A DNA stretch of 64,000 nt. Source: an uncultured Gemmatimonadales bacterium (GTDB lineage Bacteria; Gemmatimonadota; Gemmatimonadetes; Palauibacterales; Palauibacteraceae). Both the position numbers and the translations under genes were made by a program. The stretch's first letter is position 1. Each line of letters opens with the position of its first letter. Location: the NCBI GenBank assembly GCA_963783385.1, contig CAWANJ010000009.1:704001-768000 (forward strand), in the 5' to 3' direction. The notes under the pieces were generated by a model. That model made no database searches. It saw only the letters and a program-made list of their open reading frames with translations, and was not told where the DNA came from. Positions 43,916-50,433 of the stretch are shown piece after piece.

Positions 43916-45075
43916 GTGACGCACGCCCCCGGGTACGACCTCGAGGCGGTGCGGCGGAGGATCCCCCTCCTCCGCCGCCTCGTCCCCATGAACGCCTGCT
44001 CGCACGCGCCCCAGTCCGACGCCACCCGCGCCGCCGCCGAGGCCTACCTGGGCTCGTGGGACCGCGGACGGCATGGACTGGGACCGCTGGATGGAGGAGG
44101 TGGAGCGGGCCCGGGCGACCTTCGCCGCACCTGGTCGGCGCGGAGCCCGCGGACGTGGCCGTGGCCGCCTCGGTCTCCCAGGCCACCTCCAGCGTGGCCA
44201 GCGGTCTGGACTACGCGGGCGAGCGGCGCCGCGTGCTGGTGAGCGGCGCGGAATTCCCCACCGTGGCCCACGTGTGGCTCGCCCAGGAGCGCTTCGGCGC
44301 CGAGGTGGCCCGGGTCCCGGTGCGGGATGGCGTGGTCGCCCTGGAGGACTACGAGGCCGCCCTCGACGAGCGCACGCTGGTCGTGTCGGCCTGCCACGGC
44401 TACTACCAGGACGGGTTCAAGCAGGACGTCCCCGCCATCGCCGCGCTGGCTCACGCGCACGGCGCCCTCCTGTACGTCGACGCCTACCAGACCCTGGGCA
44501 CCGCGCCGTTCGACGCCCCCGCCAGCGGGGCGGACTTCGTGGCCGCCGGCTGCCTCAAGTACCTGATGGGGATCCCCGGCATCGCCTTCGTGTGGGTGCG
44601 GCCCGGGCTGGCGGAGCGGCTGCGGCCCGCGCTCACCGGCTGGTTCGGGCGCCGCGAGCCGTTCGCCTTCGACGCGGAGCGCCTGGACTGGGCCGAGGGC
44701 GCGCGCCGGCTCGACCTCGGTACCCCGCCCGTGCTGGAGGCCTACGTCGCCCGCGCCGGCATGGAGTGGCTGCGCGAGGTCGGGCTCGAGGCCATCGGAG
44801 CGTGGAACCGAGCGCTCGGGGCCAGACTGATCGAGGGAGGCCAGGAGCGCGGCTTCCGGCTCCTCGGAACCGACGACCCGGACCGGAAGACGCCCTCCAC
44901 CGCCTTCGCGTGCGAGGACGGCCACGCCGTGGAGGCCGCCCTGCGGGAACGCGGGGTGCTGGCCTCGGCGCGCGGGCCCGCCATCCGGCTGGCGCCCCAC
45001 TTCTACAGCTCCCTCGAGGACGTGGACCGCGCGCTGGACGCCCTGTCGGAGGTGCTGGGGGGCGGCGAGGCGTGA
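43916..45075 (+). CDS. PLP-dependent class V aminotransferase-fold enzyme, two +1 frameshifts (~44065, ~44130)
   Basis: Three consecutive frames give MNACSHAP...WMEEVERAR...EFPT...VDAYQ...GCLKYL...IRLAPHFY. Span is 1158+2 nt. Confidence 0.85.
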
Positions 45076-46410
45076 GCCCGGCCCGCGAGACCTTCGGGTC
45101 CCGGCTCGGGATGCTGGCCACCATGATCGGGGTGGCCGTGGGGCTCGGGAACGTGTGGCGCTTCCCGTACATGGTGGGGCGCTACGGCGGGGCGGCGTTC
45201 GTGCTCCTCTACGTGGTGCTGGCCGCGGCCGTGGGCGTGCCGGGGCTGATGGCCGAGTGGTCGCTGGGGCGGGCCACGCGGCGCGGGCCGCTGGGGGCGT
45301 TCGAGCGGGCCGGACTCCCGGGCGGACGCGTTCGTCGGCTGGCTCCTGTTCCTGGTCGTCCTCACCGCGCTCGGCTACTACACGAACGCCATCGGGTGGG
45401 TGGCCTGCTACGCCCTCGGCCAGCTCCTCGTCCCCCTGGGGCGGCCTCTGGACCCCTCCGCCATTCTCCCGCCCGCTTCCGGCTTCTCCGGCCGGGCCTT
45501 CGCGCTGCAGCTCACCTTCACGGCCCTCCTCCTCCTGGCCCAGGGCGCGGTGATCCGGAAGGGGCTCCGGGCCGGGATCGAGAAGGCGAGCCGGGTGCTG
45601 ACGCCCCTCGTGTTCGTTTCCCTGCTCGTCCTCCTCGTCCGCTCCCTCACCCTGCCGGGCGCGGGGGCCGGCGCTGCGCTGGTACCTGGCCTTCCACCCC
45701 TCGCGACGTGACCCCGTCCGTGCTGGTGGCGGCGCTGGGCCAGGTGGTGTTCTCGCTGGCGCTGGGCGGCACGATGATGGTCGTGTACGGCTCCTACCTG
45801 GCCGAGGGGGAGGCGCTCAAGGGCGACGCCATCCTCACGGTGGTGGGCGACACGGCGGCCGGCTTCCTGGCGGGTCTCGCCATCTTCCCGGCCGTGTTCG
45901 CGTTCGGTCTCGAGCCCGGCAGCGGCCCCGGCCTCCTGTTCGCCACCCTGCCCCGCGTCTTCGCCCACATCCCGGCCGGCTGGGCCTTCGGCGTCCTGTT
46001 CTTCGGGGCCTCGCTGGGCGCCGCCTTCCTGTCGGGCATCGCCGCCTTCGAGGTGCTGGCCGCCGGCCTCGGCGACGCCCTCGGGATGCCGCGGCGGAAG
46101 GCCGTGAACCTCCTCCTGGGGCTGCTGCCTCCTGCTCGCCCTGCCGCCCATGGTGAACCTGAAGGTCTTCGTCCCCTGGGACCTCACCTTCGGCTCGGGC
46201 GGGCAGACGGTGGGCGCGCTGCTCGCGGCCATCACCGTGGGCTGGGCCCTCCGCCGCGGCGCCCTGCTCGAGCAGATCGGCGGCGACCACCCGGGCCGGC
46301 TGGACCGCTTCCTGGTCGCCTGGCTACGCTGGGTGCTGCCCGCGGCCATCCTGACGGCGGGAGCGTGGTGGGTGGCGTCGGACGTGCTGGGGGTGGCGGG
46401 AGGGGCGTAG
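45072..46410 (+). CDS. Sodium-dependent transporter (NSS/SNF family), four +1 frameshifts
   Basis: AVGLGNVWRFPY, GIEKASR, GQVVFSL and GPGLLF. Shifts near 45330, 45673, 45700 and 46125. Span is 1335+4 nt. Confidence 0.88.
46294..46397 (+). repeat. Direct repeat, left copy (3' end of the NSS transporter gene)
   Basis: 104 nt with 3 mismatches to 50245..50348; weaker similarity extends about 40 nt upstream. Confidence 0.95.
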
Positions 46411-46456
46411 TCGACCGCGCATCGGCATGGCCTCCGGGTGCGGAGCCGGCACCACG

Positions 46457-47648
46457 CTAGCCACTCGATCCTGGCGTGACGATCCGAGGCTTCAGAATCT
46501 CGGCTCGGGTGTCCCCCGCGCGGGTTTCTGACATGCGGTACAGGAGCAGACCGTCGCCGCAGACGGGAGCGACGACCGCATCGAATCAATGCCGCGCCAT
46601 CACGCGGACTCGGGACCCATGGCTGACGTCCAGGACCTCGACCACCGTGTCGAATGTCCGACGGGTCCAGGCGGGTGAGCTGAAGTGGAGCGAGTCGGGA
46701 CTCCAGTGCGCATCAGGTACCACCGAAAACGTCCAGAGCCGGCGGTCGGTGCCCTCCGTCAGGTGCTCGAGGTACACGAGCGGAGGCAAATCCGTGTACA
46801 TCCTCTCCAGCCGGCCCGGCGTGACCTCCTGACGGTCGGGAAACCAGGCCGCATGGCGTGCGTAGCTTCCCTCGACCTCACCCGCATCGCTCCAGTGGTA
46901 GATCTCGTATCTCCACACGCTGGCGGTCCAGAGGTCACCGTGGCGCCCGCCCGCGACGGTCCACCAGTCGAGATCGCCGAACTGGTGGTTGTGAGTTCCG
47001 AATTGTGCTATCCGGGTCCCGGCATCGTCGAGCACACGGAACAGCGGCCGCTCGTTGTCAGACGCCGCCGGTTCGGTCGTGAGGAGCCATCGACCCCCAC
47101 CGAGACGGCTCCATCCGCTCCCACCGCCGGGCAGTCGAAAGGAACCCAGAAACCGGCCTTCTGCCGTGACTGTGACGGCTCGCTGATTGAACCGGTCGAA
47201 CACTTCGAGCGTATCTCCGTGCATGACCGTGAGGCCGAGCTGATTGCCGAACTCTGTGGGCCCCTGCCCTGGGCGACCCACCGCCCTCAGCCACATACCG
47301 TCGCTGCCGTAGACCGCCAGCTGACCGCCCCCGACAAGATCACCGACCACGAAATCCCCGCTCACCAAATGTGCGATCGAGCACAGAGTTCCGAGGGGCG
47401 CATCAGCGGAGATCGAGGCAGGATCGTTCGCCCCTCCGAGCCGGGCGATCACCTGGATCTCGAGAATGGCATGTTGGACAGTTCGAGTCTGCGGCGATTG
47501 AGCTCTGTGACACATTTTCGTTACTTCGGTGCCGTGGACGCGATCCGGTGGCGGAGCAGGCCGCGAGAACGGCGACCAGCATCGTGAGGAGGGGGCCTCC
47601 TCTCGACGGCGTCCAGCGACGGTTTCGTGTAGGAACCTCACGGCGCAA
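46457..47648 (-). pseudogene. 6-bladed beta-propeller lipoprotein with a frameshift (~47466) and an in-frame TGA (46586-46588)
   Basis: Lipobox LAAC and CPTC in ORF 47403..48008, then GRPGQGPTEF and DTVVEVLD in ORF 46586..47656. The frame continues 42 codons past the TGA to a TAG at 46457. Start uncertain. Confidence 0.7.
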
Positions 47649-47827
47649 ATCAGCACACTCAGTTAGCGCCTGGTGAGACTCATCCTCCATGGCGCAGGCC
47701 ATGAAGCGAGTTACCGTGGACCGGTCTGAACATAGACGCCGGCAGTATCCGAGCACTGCAGTCGCCCGAGATACGGACGGACTGCCCAGAGCCGCTCCCA
47801 GACCGGGCTGCACCGTGCCATGCGGTT

Positions 47828-48508
47828 CTATCCGGCCCCATGCTTCTGAAGAGCCTGGCGAACATCCTCGACCAACATGGACTCCGCGGGCAGTCCCGTC
47901 TCGACAATGCGTCCGATAACGAACGTCGGCGTTCCTCGAACTCCCAACCTTCTGCCCGCCTGCATGTCCCTCTCCACGCGGGGCATCGGCGCTGCATCTC
48001 TTAGGCACTCCATGAACCGTTCCGAGTCGAGCACGCCGGCTCTACGGGACAGTTCCACCCAGTTCAGGAGTCCGAGCGAGTCTTGCTTGGAGTACGCTAC
48101 GTGAAGGAACGCCGCAAATCGGCCCTCGTCTGCAGCGCATTCCGACGCCACAGCCGCTTCGAGTGCCTGCGGGTGAACCTCTGACAGGGGATAGTGCCTG
48201 AATCTCACTGCCACGTGTCCGCCGAACACGGTGGTCACAGAATCCAGGAGCCCTTCGGCCCGCGCACAATACGGGCATTCCATGTCTGCGAACTCCACGA
48301 CGTGAACACGGGCCGTCTTGGATCCGATGACGTGCCCCCCATTATCGAGTTCCACTGCAAGTTTCCGGTCAATCGTACGGACGGGGGAGCGTGAGGTCTC
48401 GATCGGTTGCGTACTCAATTCACGTCGAACTACGAGGGCCGTGACGGTCACTGCGCAGCCTGCAAGAACCCCGAGCGCCGCATTCTGAAAAAGATCGGAT
48501 GCCTTCAC
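47828..48508 (-). CDS. DsbA/BdbD-type thiol-disulfide oxidoreductase, membrane-anchored
   Basis: N-terminal TM segment, EFADMECPYC active site, FRHYPL, a second Cys pair (ECAA/MECL) and the GTPT cis-Pro loop. Confidence 0.92.
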   Translation of the reverse strand: MKASDLFQNAALGVLAGCAVTVTALVVRRELSTQPIETSRSPVRTIDRKLAVELDNGGHVIGSKTARVHVVEFADMECPYCARAEGLLDSVTTVFGGHVAVRFRHYPLSEVHPQALEAAVASECAADEGRFAAFLHVAYSKQDSLGLLNWVELSRRAGVLDSERFMECLRDAAPMPRVERDMQAGRRLGVRGTPTFVIGRIVETGLPAESMLVEDVRQALQKHGAG

Positions 48509-48636
48509 GATCCAATTTCATCCGGGGGCTCAAGCGTAGTGTCCAGACTTCACCTTCAGATCTGCCAAAGGACCTGATGCCGGATCCCTTTGCACCTTGC
48601 CTGGGGTGCGCCCGCTGCGTTGGAGGTAGCAAGACC

Positions 48637-48855
48637 TCAGAAACACTGACCAGGCATGGGTGACCCGGGGCCAGCTGAGCACTTAGAACACACGGGGTCC
48701 GGACTGCAGTCAGAATTCGAATGGCAGGCCTGGTCGCAGACCAGTGAATTCGTCCTGGTCGAATTCGAATTGGCATACGCCGGTGTTGAAATGTATACCG
48801 CGCCACCGAAGGTCACAATGGCTGCGATCAACCCAGCGATGAGTCGCTTGTTCAT
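48637..48855 (-). CDS. Secreted 6-Cys peptide (72-aa precursor, ~44-aa mature), knottin-like
   Basis: AGGAG SD; Sec signal MNKRLIAGLIAAIVTFGGAVYISTPAYA; mature part NSNSTRTNSLVCDQACHSNSDCSPDPVCSKCSAGPGSPMPGQCF. Confidence 0.85.
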   Translation of the reverse strand: MNKRLIAGLIAAIVTFGGAVYISTPAYANSNSTRTNSLVCDQACHSNSDCSPDPVCSKCSAGPGSPMPGQCF

Positions 48856-48895
48856 GACCTTCTCCTGGCTACGGTGGACTACCACCTCTAGTATT

Positions 48896-48925
48896 ATTTT
48901 AAAAGATCGTTCGACGCCGTGTCAA
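48896..48925 (-). promoter_or_regulatory. Near-consensus sigma70 promoter for the peptide gene
   Basis: TTGACA-N18-TAAAAT, 40 nt upstream of the peptide ATG. Confidence 0.7.
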
Positions 48926-49132
48926 GAATTCAGGGCCAGGACCTTCCCCAGAGACTCCATCTCAGATTCTGTAACCCGTTGATGATCAGTCGCTTGTAGG
49001 CATCTGCGAGTGAAACGGGCCCGCTCGAGCGGAGAATGGGGAACCTTCGTGCAGATGAAAGCGGGCCCCCACTCGCACAAGTTGTTGGTGTCCATCGGCA
49101 AGGAAGCCGACCACCTGGCGAGGGGGACCCGG

Positions 49133-50192
49133 ATGGAGAGTGCGCGGCTCGCGGGGAAGGTGCAAGGTCAGATCCTGCGATTCTCGGGGAAACTTTCGGC
49201 CGGGCTGCCCAGAGATGGCCCGCCGGGCGGTGGGGGAGATCCTCTACGGGATGCAGGCCCGCGGCTCGGTTCGCCTTTCGGAGATCGGACGGGCCCTGGA
49301 GGAAGAGACGGTCCTGAAGACGGTGATCGAGCGGCTGGGCCGACAGCTCGGATGGCCCGAGCTTCGGCGCCGGGTGCGGGAGAACCTCCTGGCCCTCGGG
49401 ACGCCGAAGGTAGGCGAGCAAACGCTGCTGGTCACCGACCTGACCGACATCAGCAAGGCCTACGCTCAGAAGATGGAGCACCTGGCCAGGGTGTACGACG
49501 GCCGGGCGGACGAGATCACCGACGGCTACGAGTGCGTGGAGGTGCTGGCGGCCGAGGCGGGTTCGCCCGACGTGGTGCCCCTGTATCAGGAGCTCTACAG
49601 TTCGGAGGCGCCGGAGTTTGTGAGCGAGAACCGGAAGGTGCTCAAGGCGGTGCGGGCGGTGAGCCGCGCCACCGAGGGCCGGGGGATCTGGGTGATCGAC
49701 CGGGGCGGAGACCGCCGGAACATCACCCCGCGGCTGGAGCGAGGCCAGGACTTTCTGATCCGGCTCTAGGGCCGGCGGCACCTCGAGTGGAGGCGCTCGG
49801 CTCTGAGCGCCCGGGAGCTGGCGACCCGCACACGCCGCCCTTTCGAGGAGACGGTCGTCAAGGAAGAGGGCGCCGAGGAGAGAGCCTATGTCCTGCGCTT
49901 CGGCTCCACCCCGGTGCGCTTTCCCGGCTCGGCGCGCCGACTCTGGCTGGTCGTCGTGGACGGACGGGGAGCGAAGCCGCTTCTGCTGCTGACCACCCTG
50001 CCCGCCGGCCGGTCCAGGAGGCGCACCTGGCGGATCGTCCAGAGCTACTTGACCCGCTGGCGGGTGGAGGAGACGATCCGCTTCCTCAAGCAGAGCTACG
50101 ACGTGGAGGACATCCGGCGGCTCAAGTACGACCGGCTCCGGGCCATGGCCACGCTCGTGATGGCCGCCGGTCACTTCGCCACCTTCGGCTAG
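49133..50192 (+). pseudogene. DDE transposase (IS4-like) remnant
   Basis: SVRLSEIGRAL, LVTDLTDISK, WVIDRGGD and YLTRWRVEETIRFLK motifs. Frameshift near 49210, in-frame TAG at 49767, 3' end truncated. The IS left end is probably near 48931 (CAGGGCCAGG). Confidence 0.85.
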
Positions 50193-50244
50193 GGCGGACA
50201 GACCGCCGGCGGCCCTCCTGCGCCAGCTCGGGGGCGGGGCCCCC

Positions 50245-50348
50245 GGCCGGCTGGACCGCTTCCTGGTCGCCTGGCTGCGCTGGGTGCTGCCCGCGGCCAT
50301 CCTGGCGGCGGGGGCGTGGTGGGTGGCGTCGGACGTGCTGGGGGTGGC
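50245..50348 (+). repeat. Direct repeat, right copy (orphan 3' fragment of the NSS gene, ending at TAG 50358)
   Basis: Translates as GRLDRFLVAWLRWVLPAAILAAGAWWVASDVLGVAGA*, matching the transporter C-terminus. Confidence 0.95.
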
Positions 50349-50433
50349 CGGCGCCTAGACTCGACGGGTCCGGCGGCGGAGACTCGCGGCCGCGCCGCTG
50401 GCGACCGGTGGCCAAAATGAAAGGAGACGGACC

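Follow-up and report, generated by a model that had tools for sequence, protein, structure and literature searches.

A putative class of disulfide-rich, possibly knotted peptides encoded beside dedicated folding genes in Gemmatimonadota

Knottins and other disulfide-rich mini-proteins are prized as drug and imaging scaffolds, and they have been recorded almost only from eukaryotes. The potato carboxypeptidase inhibitor (PCI) inhibits through a longer C-terminal tail, which enters the active site of the carboxypeptidase. Sublancin is a glycocin from a Gram-positive prophage, where genes for an ATP-binding cassette (ABC) transporter and for immunity accompany it, and papers on its operon reportedly mention BdbB. 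No known knottin family has, to our knowledge, a dedicated operon with a DsbA and a propeller protein. This text concerns a gene for a small secreted six-cysteine peptide, and the DsbA-like and propeller genes beside it, in a stretch of 64,000 nucleotides (the window) from an uncultured Gemmatimonadales bacterium (assembly GCA_963783385.1, contig CAWANJ010000009.1, positions 704,001 to 768,000 of the forward strand).

In the 2017 KNOTTIN database paper, 'bacterial knottins' appear only as sequences without experimental structure (PMC5753296), and a literature search for 'bacterial knottin' found the term only in that paper; another paper, PMC6406012, has the word 'knottin' among its references alone. 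The sequences described below give good support to a new bacterial class of possibly knotted, disulfide-rich peptides with dedicated folding genes. The finding is more interesting in its gene context than as a single open reading frame (ORF). An earlier sequence-only reading of the window had picked out the ORF and interpreted it as a knottin of the plant carboxypeptidase-inhibitor type; the ORF has held up, the plant-type interpretation has done so only in part, and the three-gene cassette on an inserted island, to which the ORF belongs, had been missed.

The peptide gene and its cassette

The precursor ORF (P0001) lies at 48637-48855 on the minus strand and translates into 72 residues and a stop codon. 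Residues 1-28 (48772..48855, minus strand) are assigned as a signal peptide, by inspection and by the test with a leader-only profile given in the next section. By inspection, the leader has the n-region MNKR, a hydrophobic core of 18 residues and a c-region ending in AYA, after which cleavage is predicted; the positive n-region, the h-region and the small residues at -3 and -1 are those of Sec export and signal peptidase I, and there is no Cys lipobox. The mature part (48637..48771 with the stop codon, minus strand) has 44 residues and six Cys in the spacing C-x3-C-x5-C-x5-C-x2-C-x11-C (C3C5C5C2C11C), and the last Cys is followed by just one residue, F. Translation confirms in this the description in the sequence-only reading, which had also credited the gene with a Shine-Dalgarno (SD) sequence of its own and a near-consensus promoter. 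Both are present: the SD sequence AGGAGAAGG (48858..48866, minus strand; read from the sequence) stands 2 nucleotides before the ATG at 48855, and a sigma-70-like promoter, TTGACA-18-TAAAAT (48896..48925, minus strand), has 11 of 12 consensus matches. It is the one promoter-like site found in 46000-49600 (3.6 kb), against 0.2 expected from shuffles. An alternative GTG start would give 82 residues, but it has no SD sequence and falls close to the expected start of transcription, so that translation probably begins at the ATG at 48855.

The locus was found in seven DNA sequencing runs from two studies, with no RNA run among them. Contigs of runs X1, X2 and X3 cover the peptide gene whole and those of X4 partly, and within the gene no differing letters are listed in these four runs (two studies: soil, sediment).

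The peptide gene is the first of three on the minus strand, followed by genes for a membrane-anchored DsbA-like oxidoreductase and a lipoprotein with a six-bladed propeller. The DsbA-like thiol:disulfide oxidoreductase (47828..48508, minus strand), which has an N-terminal membrane anchor, starts 128 nucleotides downstream of the peptide gene and scores above the cut-off with both Thioredoxin_4 (78.9 bits) and DSBA (50.7 bits). Its CPYC active site, TPT cis-Pro loop and N-terminal anchor are kept in all five cassette DsbAs that were aligned (alignment A7). The genome has five Thioredoxin_4 matches, and the two with the best scores are outside the cassettes; the cassette copies are therefore extra. 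No terminator-like site was found in 46000-49600 and the spacer between the peptide and dsbA genes has no significant structure, so that the three genes probably form one operon. An attenuator hairpin in this spacer was considered and dropped, the spacer being less structured than its shuffles (z +2.2).

The third gene (46457..47636, minus strand; start approximate) encodes the propeller lipoprotein. It is called no more than DUF5128/NHL-like, because scores with PF17170 (DUF5128) fall below the cut-off of 22.9 bits: the intact propeller of the paralogous cassette reaches 17.4-18.6 bits and the window copy has no match. A precomputed PF17170 label is carried by 5 of the 13 sequence homologs of the propeller, one distant homolog (P0017) has the NCBI label Gemmatimonadota, and a literature search for 'DUF5128' found no paper. 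In this assembly the window gene is broken by a frameshift near 47465 and by an in-frame TGA at 46586-46588. Upstream of the frameshift another frame carries a lipobox (LAAC) and a CPTC motif, and homology resumes after the TGA. At 47465 the contigs of all four runs have one base fewer, and at 46588 the three runs that cover the position (all except X4) have G for A, which turns TGA into CGA. Since contigs of other runs read the gene without both lesions, the breaks may be either errors or private to this assembly. A CxxC motif follows directly on the signal or lipoprotein sequence, before the first blade, in 9 of 10 aligned propellers (alignment A3); the propeller without an in-frame motif is the broken window copy, where it sits in another frame.

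Judged from its sequence, 48637-48855 is a genuine small gene for a secreted six-Cys mini-protein. It is taken as more than a chance ORF because there is a paralog with 55-63% identity, because six-Cys relatives occur in the same gene context in three further genomes and because the gene is unchanged in four runs. A word search of 5.8 billion proteins with the peptide matched only the paralog and gave no entry for the ORF itself, and the neighbouring propeller, transposase and symporter genes are frame-broken in this assembly, all of which would suit an ORF that arose by chance or one that is decaying within a degraded mobile element. Such a non-functional ORF is nevertheless scarcely credible, as the ORF, the six Cys and the signal peptide are kept across the paralogs and three other genomes, the SD sequence and promoter match are in place, and the contigs in which the gene is unchanged are the same that read the propeller without its lesions.

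Relatives and a wider class with a conserved leader

The genome (G000) carries another such cassette, its genes in the same order, on contig C2. It stands between recX on one side and genes of unrelated kinds on the other, and its guanine-plus-cytosine (GC) content is likewise lower. The two peptides have the same Cys spacing, and identity is 50% for the DsbAs and 54% for the propellers. Upstream of the first ATG, GTG or TTG of the intact C2 propeller (L020:5104-6171), an in-frame lipoprotein signal with the lipobox LAAC is found at L020:4900-5104, which points to either a non-canonical start codon or a sequence error. Orthologs of the C2 peptide (P0002) were found in public contigs at one genome locus (L021) and one metagenome locus (L022), with an identical mature peptide. 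Between L020 and L022 the peptide gene has seven nucleotide differences, making three synonymous and four non-synonymous codon changes; the latter four are confined to the signal peptide, and the 42 mature residues are identical. The two loci differ also at recA, which is an 816-residue ORF with an intein-like insert in L022 (1814-4264, plus strand) and a 379-residue one without it in L020 (2043-3182).

More distant relatives were found through the neighbouring genes. A HMMER search of 1.84 billion cluster representatives returned the paralog and three long repetitive proteins only, the latter judged unrelated. When a two-row profile was run against six-frame translations of the 401 sampled genomes, 13 matches outside the own genome (E 9.5e-4 to 9e-3) were treated as noise; six of them have internal stop codons and none lies in a genome later found to carry relatives. 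Related loci searched for with the window propeller were not found. Among 29 propeller loci outside the own genome, two have a DsbA homolog, and exactly these two have a secreted six-Cys ORF upstream; the ORFs, next to propeller and DsbA, are preceded by an SD sequence (L053:5266-5454 and L054:4710-4889). With the resulting four-row profile (A4), peptide, DsbA and propeller genes were found in the window order in genome G086 (L057), together with a frameshifted copy just upstream of a DsbA gene in genome G341. In the G341 copy (L082:1047-1466) the signal peptide and C-x4-C-x5-C can be read, after which the frame is lost and the remaining Cys motifs continue in another. A five-row profile returned already known sequences only from the 5.8-billion-protein set.

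The subfamily is thus intact in 4 of the 401 genomes, from three families, the own genome included. Across the five intact sequences the six Cys and one Gly never vary, and little else is kept. Loop lengths are 3-4, 5, 3-5, 2 and 9-11, which lie inside the knottin ranges. The relatives outside the own genome have the spacing C3-4 C5 C3 C1-2 C9 C and a tail of 1-5 non-conserved residues after the last Cys.

A search for small ORFs upstream of dsbA genes, which had been suggested in the sequence-only reading, was productive well beyond this subfamily. A profile of the five cassette DsbAs has matches at E<=1e-25 in 207 of the 401 genomes, often several per genome; this count includes one genome flagged as unpublished (G097), which enters no other claim. 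The best 30 DsbA-paralog loci were taken for the counts that follow, with a filter for upstream ORFs of 35-110 residues, a signal-peptide-like start and at least four Cys after residue 18. At least one such ORF lies within 750 nucleotides upstream of the DsbA gene in 14 of the 30 loci, and the density of filtered ORFs is 0.756 per kb upstream against 0.078 per kb in the rest of the same loci. A propeller gene is found within 1.5 kb on either side in 16 loci. In nine loci the order is propeller-DsbA, and in seven of these nine the filtered ORF is directly upstream of the propeller. Summed over both orders, a small secreted Cys-rich ORF accompanies the DsbA paralog in 21 of the 30 loci.

Twenty-one precursors align over a shared leader, which consists of M, K or R, a hydrophobic run with GG and then L-x-S/T-P...A. 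The mature parts cannot be aligned and have 4, 6 or 8 Cys in at least 10 frameworks. Identity is 29.8% in the leader against 11.8% at non-Cys mature positions. A leader-only profile was built from 19 peptides of other genomes, leaving out the two G000 rows. Against 39,334 six-frame ORFs of the genome it ranks the window peptide first (E 0.0013) and the C2 paralog second (E 0.069), followed by an ORF at E 0.38; the leader likeness therefore goes beyond generic signal-peptide character. Tandem precursor pairs with near-identical leaders and diverged mature parts occur at L070 (840-1055 and 1142-1366) and L095 (1690-1887 and 2100-2306), and point to local gene duplication and diversification. At L071:1159-1356 (plus strand) a DsbA paralog is preceded by a secreted peptide whose framework, C6C5CC3C9C, is the classic one of inhibitor cystine knots; on this pattern it would rank, after the window peptide, as a good candidate bacterial knottin.

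Databases hold little on these peptides. None of the 21 class members is matched by NCBIfam models, two have one sub-threshold Pfam match each, and a literature search on Gemmatimonadota and cysteine-rich secreted peptides gave nothing relevant. An undescribed, uncurated and highly variable class of bacterial disulfide-rich peptides in the phylum is well supported by these comparisons. Its putative layout is a conserved signal peptide and a hypervariable Cys-rich mature part, always beside a DsbA paralog and usually beside a propeller.

The even number of mature Cys, seen in 21 of 21 precursors, also bears on the chemistry of these residues. Two of the Cys pairs, Cys I-x3/4-Cys II and Cys IV-x2-Cys V, look like zinc knuckles, a His adjoins Cys II in P0001, and two relatives have weak zinc-finger matches in Pfam (E 0.086 and 0.01), as if the Cys bound zinc or copper in a small periplasmic metal-binding protein and formed no disulfides. 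Besides the even Cys count, what makes such a protein highly improbable is that the peptide is exported into an oxidising compartment and, in each of the five intact subfamily loci, has a DsbA of its own beside it; the zinc-finger matches are far below the cut-offs, and the His is replaced by T, T and V in relatives.

Fold, likeness to plant inhibitors and the inserted island

A knottin topology, with disulfides I-IV, II-V and III-VI and the last of these threaded through the ring, was evaluated for the window peptide by structure prediction. AlphaFold2 gave an unusable model of the 44-residue mature peptide with two sequences (predicted local confidence, pLDDT, 48.6). With five sequences, the 35-residue core reached a mean pLDDT of 83.3 (models 83.3, 82.2, 76.1, 52.8 and 45.1). 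Foldseek with the core model found nothing in the PDB at E<=0.001 and seven weak rows at E 2.7-8.7, of which five are toxin or engineered mini-protein chains known, or taken by us, to be knottins. Among them are 8se8_I ('CKP' bound to HTRA-1), 6qjb (truncated Evasin-3) and 8vad_B (MCoHNE-I), all three of which we take to be cystine-knot mini-proteins; they align over 26-30 of the 35 residues with a root-mean-square deviation of 1.9-2.5 A and 21-31% identity, at weak scores. The core model is weakly consistent with a knottin fold, and it may be biased towards known folds. With these predictions, the chance that the window peptide has knottin topology is put slightly above even. The peptide gave a best feature score of 0.81 and no named family in the ESM Atlas, which is a lead only. 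A predicted complex of the C2 propeller (A3) with its peptide (A8) had a median of 0.31 against a mark of 0.32, and nothing is drawn from it.

The likeness to PCI and the tomato cystine-knot miniproteins (TCMP), on which the sequence-only reading had built its interpretation, is measurable. PF02977, the PCI family, is the only Pfam match of P0001 (14.3 bits, E 0.036) and the top match of P0002 (19.9 bits, E 6.4e-4), which carries a precomputed PF02977 label. The best match of a two-paralog profile among PDB sequences is 2hlg_A, 'Fruit-specific protein' (E 0.21), with C-x3-C-x-SNSDC in common. The first four Cys spacings of P0001 are those given for PCI in the sequence-only reading (C3C5C5C2C6C), and the gene lies on an inserted island, described below, as a true PCI/TCMP homolog acquired horizontally might. 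Such a homolog, inhibiting M14 metallocarboxypeptidases as PCI does, is nonetheless very unlikely. Both PF02977 scores are below the gathering cut-off of 25 bits, and none of the three other subfamily members is listed with this family even at E<=10. The last loop of P0001 has 11 residues, not 6, and instead of the tail of several residues in PCI there is one residue, with 1-5 non-conserved ones in the relatives. The leader, moreover, is homologous to leaders of unrelated Cys frameworks in the phylum, which argues for a bacterial origin.

Since no relative matches PF02977 and the third and last loops of the relatives differ, homology with the plant family is unlikely and the picture of a plant-type inhibitor in a bacterium is probably wrong. 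PCI-like loop lengths and the SNSD motif are a local feature of one lineage, and the plant likeness is most simply explained by convergence inside a small Cys framework.

That the cassette is accessory, carried by a low-GC insertion of 3.9 kb, is concluded from the low GC, the direct repeats, a DDE transposase and an empty site in a related genome. The direct repeats are 140 nucleotides long and 89% identical to each other; copy 1 (46261..46400), at the left insertion edge, forms the 3' end of a sodium-symporter-like gene, and copy 2 (50212..50351) marks the right edge. GC content is 55-66% in 46400-49200 against 73-78% in the flanks. An IS4-type DDE transposase remnant in two frames (49140..50192, plus strand) lies between the peptide gene and the right repeat. 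Its second frame (49914-50192) matches DDE_Tnp_1 with 26.4 bits and the first (49140-49769) has weak IS4/IS701 matches in NCBIfam. In the same-genus genome G411 (92% complete) the symporter-like and histidine-phosphatase genes are about 158 nucleotides apart, against 4.1 kb in the window, and the peptide profile has no match in that genome. A tblastn search of plasmids with P0001 gave no match.

The sodium-symporter-like gene (44970-46460, plus strand; motif GNVWRFPY) seems to be split into an ORF at 44073-46460 and another at 45400-45711, which suggests further indel errors or a pseudogene. Together with the split transposase, it fits an indel-prone assembly.

Proposed function and comparison with known systems

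In the proposed mechanism the peptide would be exported by Sec and its 28-residue signal peptide cut after AYA. In the periplasm the neighbouring membrane-anchored DsbA would then form three disulfides in the 44-residue product, giving a compact and probably knotted mini-protein. The propeller lipoprotein, with its conserved N-terminal CxxC, would most likely be the binding partner of the peptide, as a receptor, in immunity or in handling. The peptide itself may act as an antagonistic or defensive effector, either a toxin or an inhibitor. The best explanation as a whole is this Sec-exported, DsbA-oxidised accessory effector peptide with a propeller partner, which we regard as reasonably probable. 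The effector role is proposed because the layout, with a conserved leader, a fast-changing mature part, several copies per genome and an oxidoreductase of its own, is familiar from venom and defence peptides and from those bacteriocin operons that include thiol-disulfide oxidoreductases.

Several points weigh against this explanation. The filter for upstream ORFs was a crude one, so that matches such as L090 may be spurious, and kin genomes are not independent samples. The window propeller gene is broken in this assembly. Matches to the propeller family occur in 245 of the 401 genomes, a single genome having as many as 370 first-look candidates, and 27 of the 29 top propeller loci have no DsbA homolog within 1.5 kb on either side; being common and mostly without DsbA, the propeller is not exclusively linked to the peptide. 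The cassette encodes no outer-membrane exporter, and in a diderm the peptide may stay periplasmic, a location less suited to a secreted toxin than to an inhibitor, immunity factor or ligand.

The lack of an exporter from the cassette would also fit if the propeller lipoprotein had the peptide as its ligand or substrate in the periplasm, such as a signal or a processed peptide, and the peptide were not an antagonistic effector. The combination of peptide, DsbA and propeller is found repeatedly, in two gene orders, and the CxxC of all propeller homologs except the broken window copy hints at redox chemistry. This relation is hard to square with the hypervariable mature parts and at least 10 Cys frameworks, which one conserved receptor or enzyme fold would have to serve, and no kinase or regulator was seen in the three-gene cassettes examined; we hold it to be unlikely, if worth keeping in view. 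The effector peptide remains the preferred explanation.

A bolder extension is that one phylum, probably Gemmatimonadota, has a conotoxin-like and rapidly diversifying arsenal of disulfide-rich mini-proteins exported by Sec, including genuine knottins, with one ancestral leader, a private DsbA and propeller, and some members on islands. It is a tentative proposal, with odds somewhat short of even. If it is true, the window peptide would represent a bacterial knottin family that has an oxidative-folding operon to itself, the first of its kind. A bacterial family with a folding enzyme of its own would give a natural, compact production system of peptide and cognate DsbA, and the class would open a new pool of frameworks for mining. 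It would also be an accessory, fast-evolving and extracytoplasmic peptide system of a new kind, in a soil and sediment phylum that has been little studied, and the cassette would provide a first functional handle on the very large propeller family.

Among described proteins, the PCI family (PF02977) and the tomato cystine-knot miniprotein 2hlg resemble the window peptide as small secreted six-Cys proteins with the first four spacings and the C-x-SNSD-C loop in common. They differ from it in that the window peptide has a bacterial host, a leader shared by a bacterial class and dsbA and propeller neighbours, and also in its last loop (11 residues against 6), its one-residue tail and its relatives, which lack the likeness. 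For knottins at large, such as squash-type trypsin inhibitors, spider and cone-snail toxins and Evasin-3, the comparison is with a predicted topology on the side of the window peptide.

In the sublancin operon (sunA, bdbA/bdbB), too, accessory or mobile DNA brings together a small exported Cys peptide and a disulfide-forming enzyme of its own. The window system differs by Sec export, by its phylum and by a propeller lipoprotein as the third gene. Superfamilies of the conotoxin type share with the new class the conserved signal, the hypervariable mature parts, the many Cys frameworks and the tandem or multiple copies. They are animal venom genes with propeptides, whereas the genes described here are bacterial, have no evident propeptide and are linked in operons to folding catalysts. 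A thioredoxin fold associated with an NHL-type propeller also occurs in eukaryotic NHLRC2; in the cassettes, the two are encoded by separate genes and both products are extracytoplasmic.

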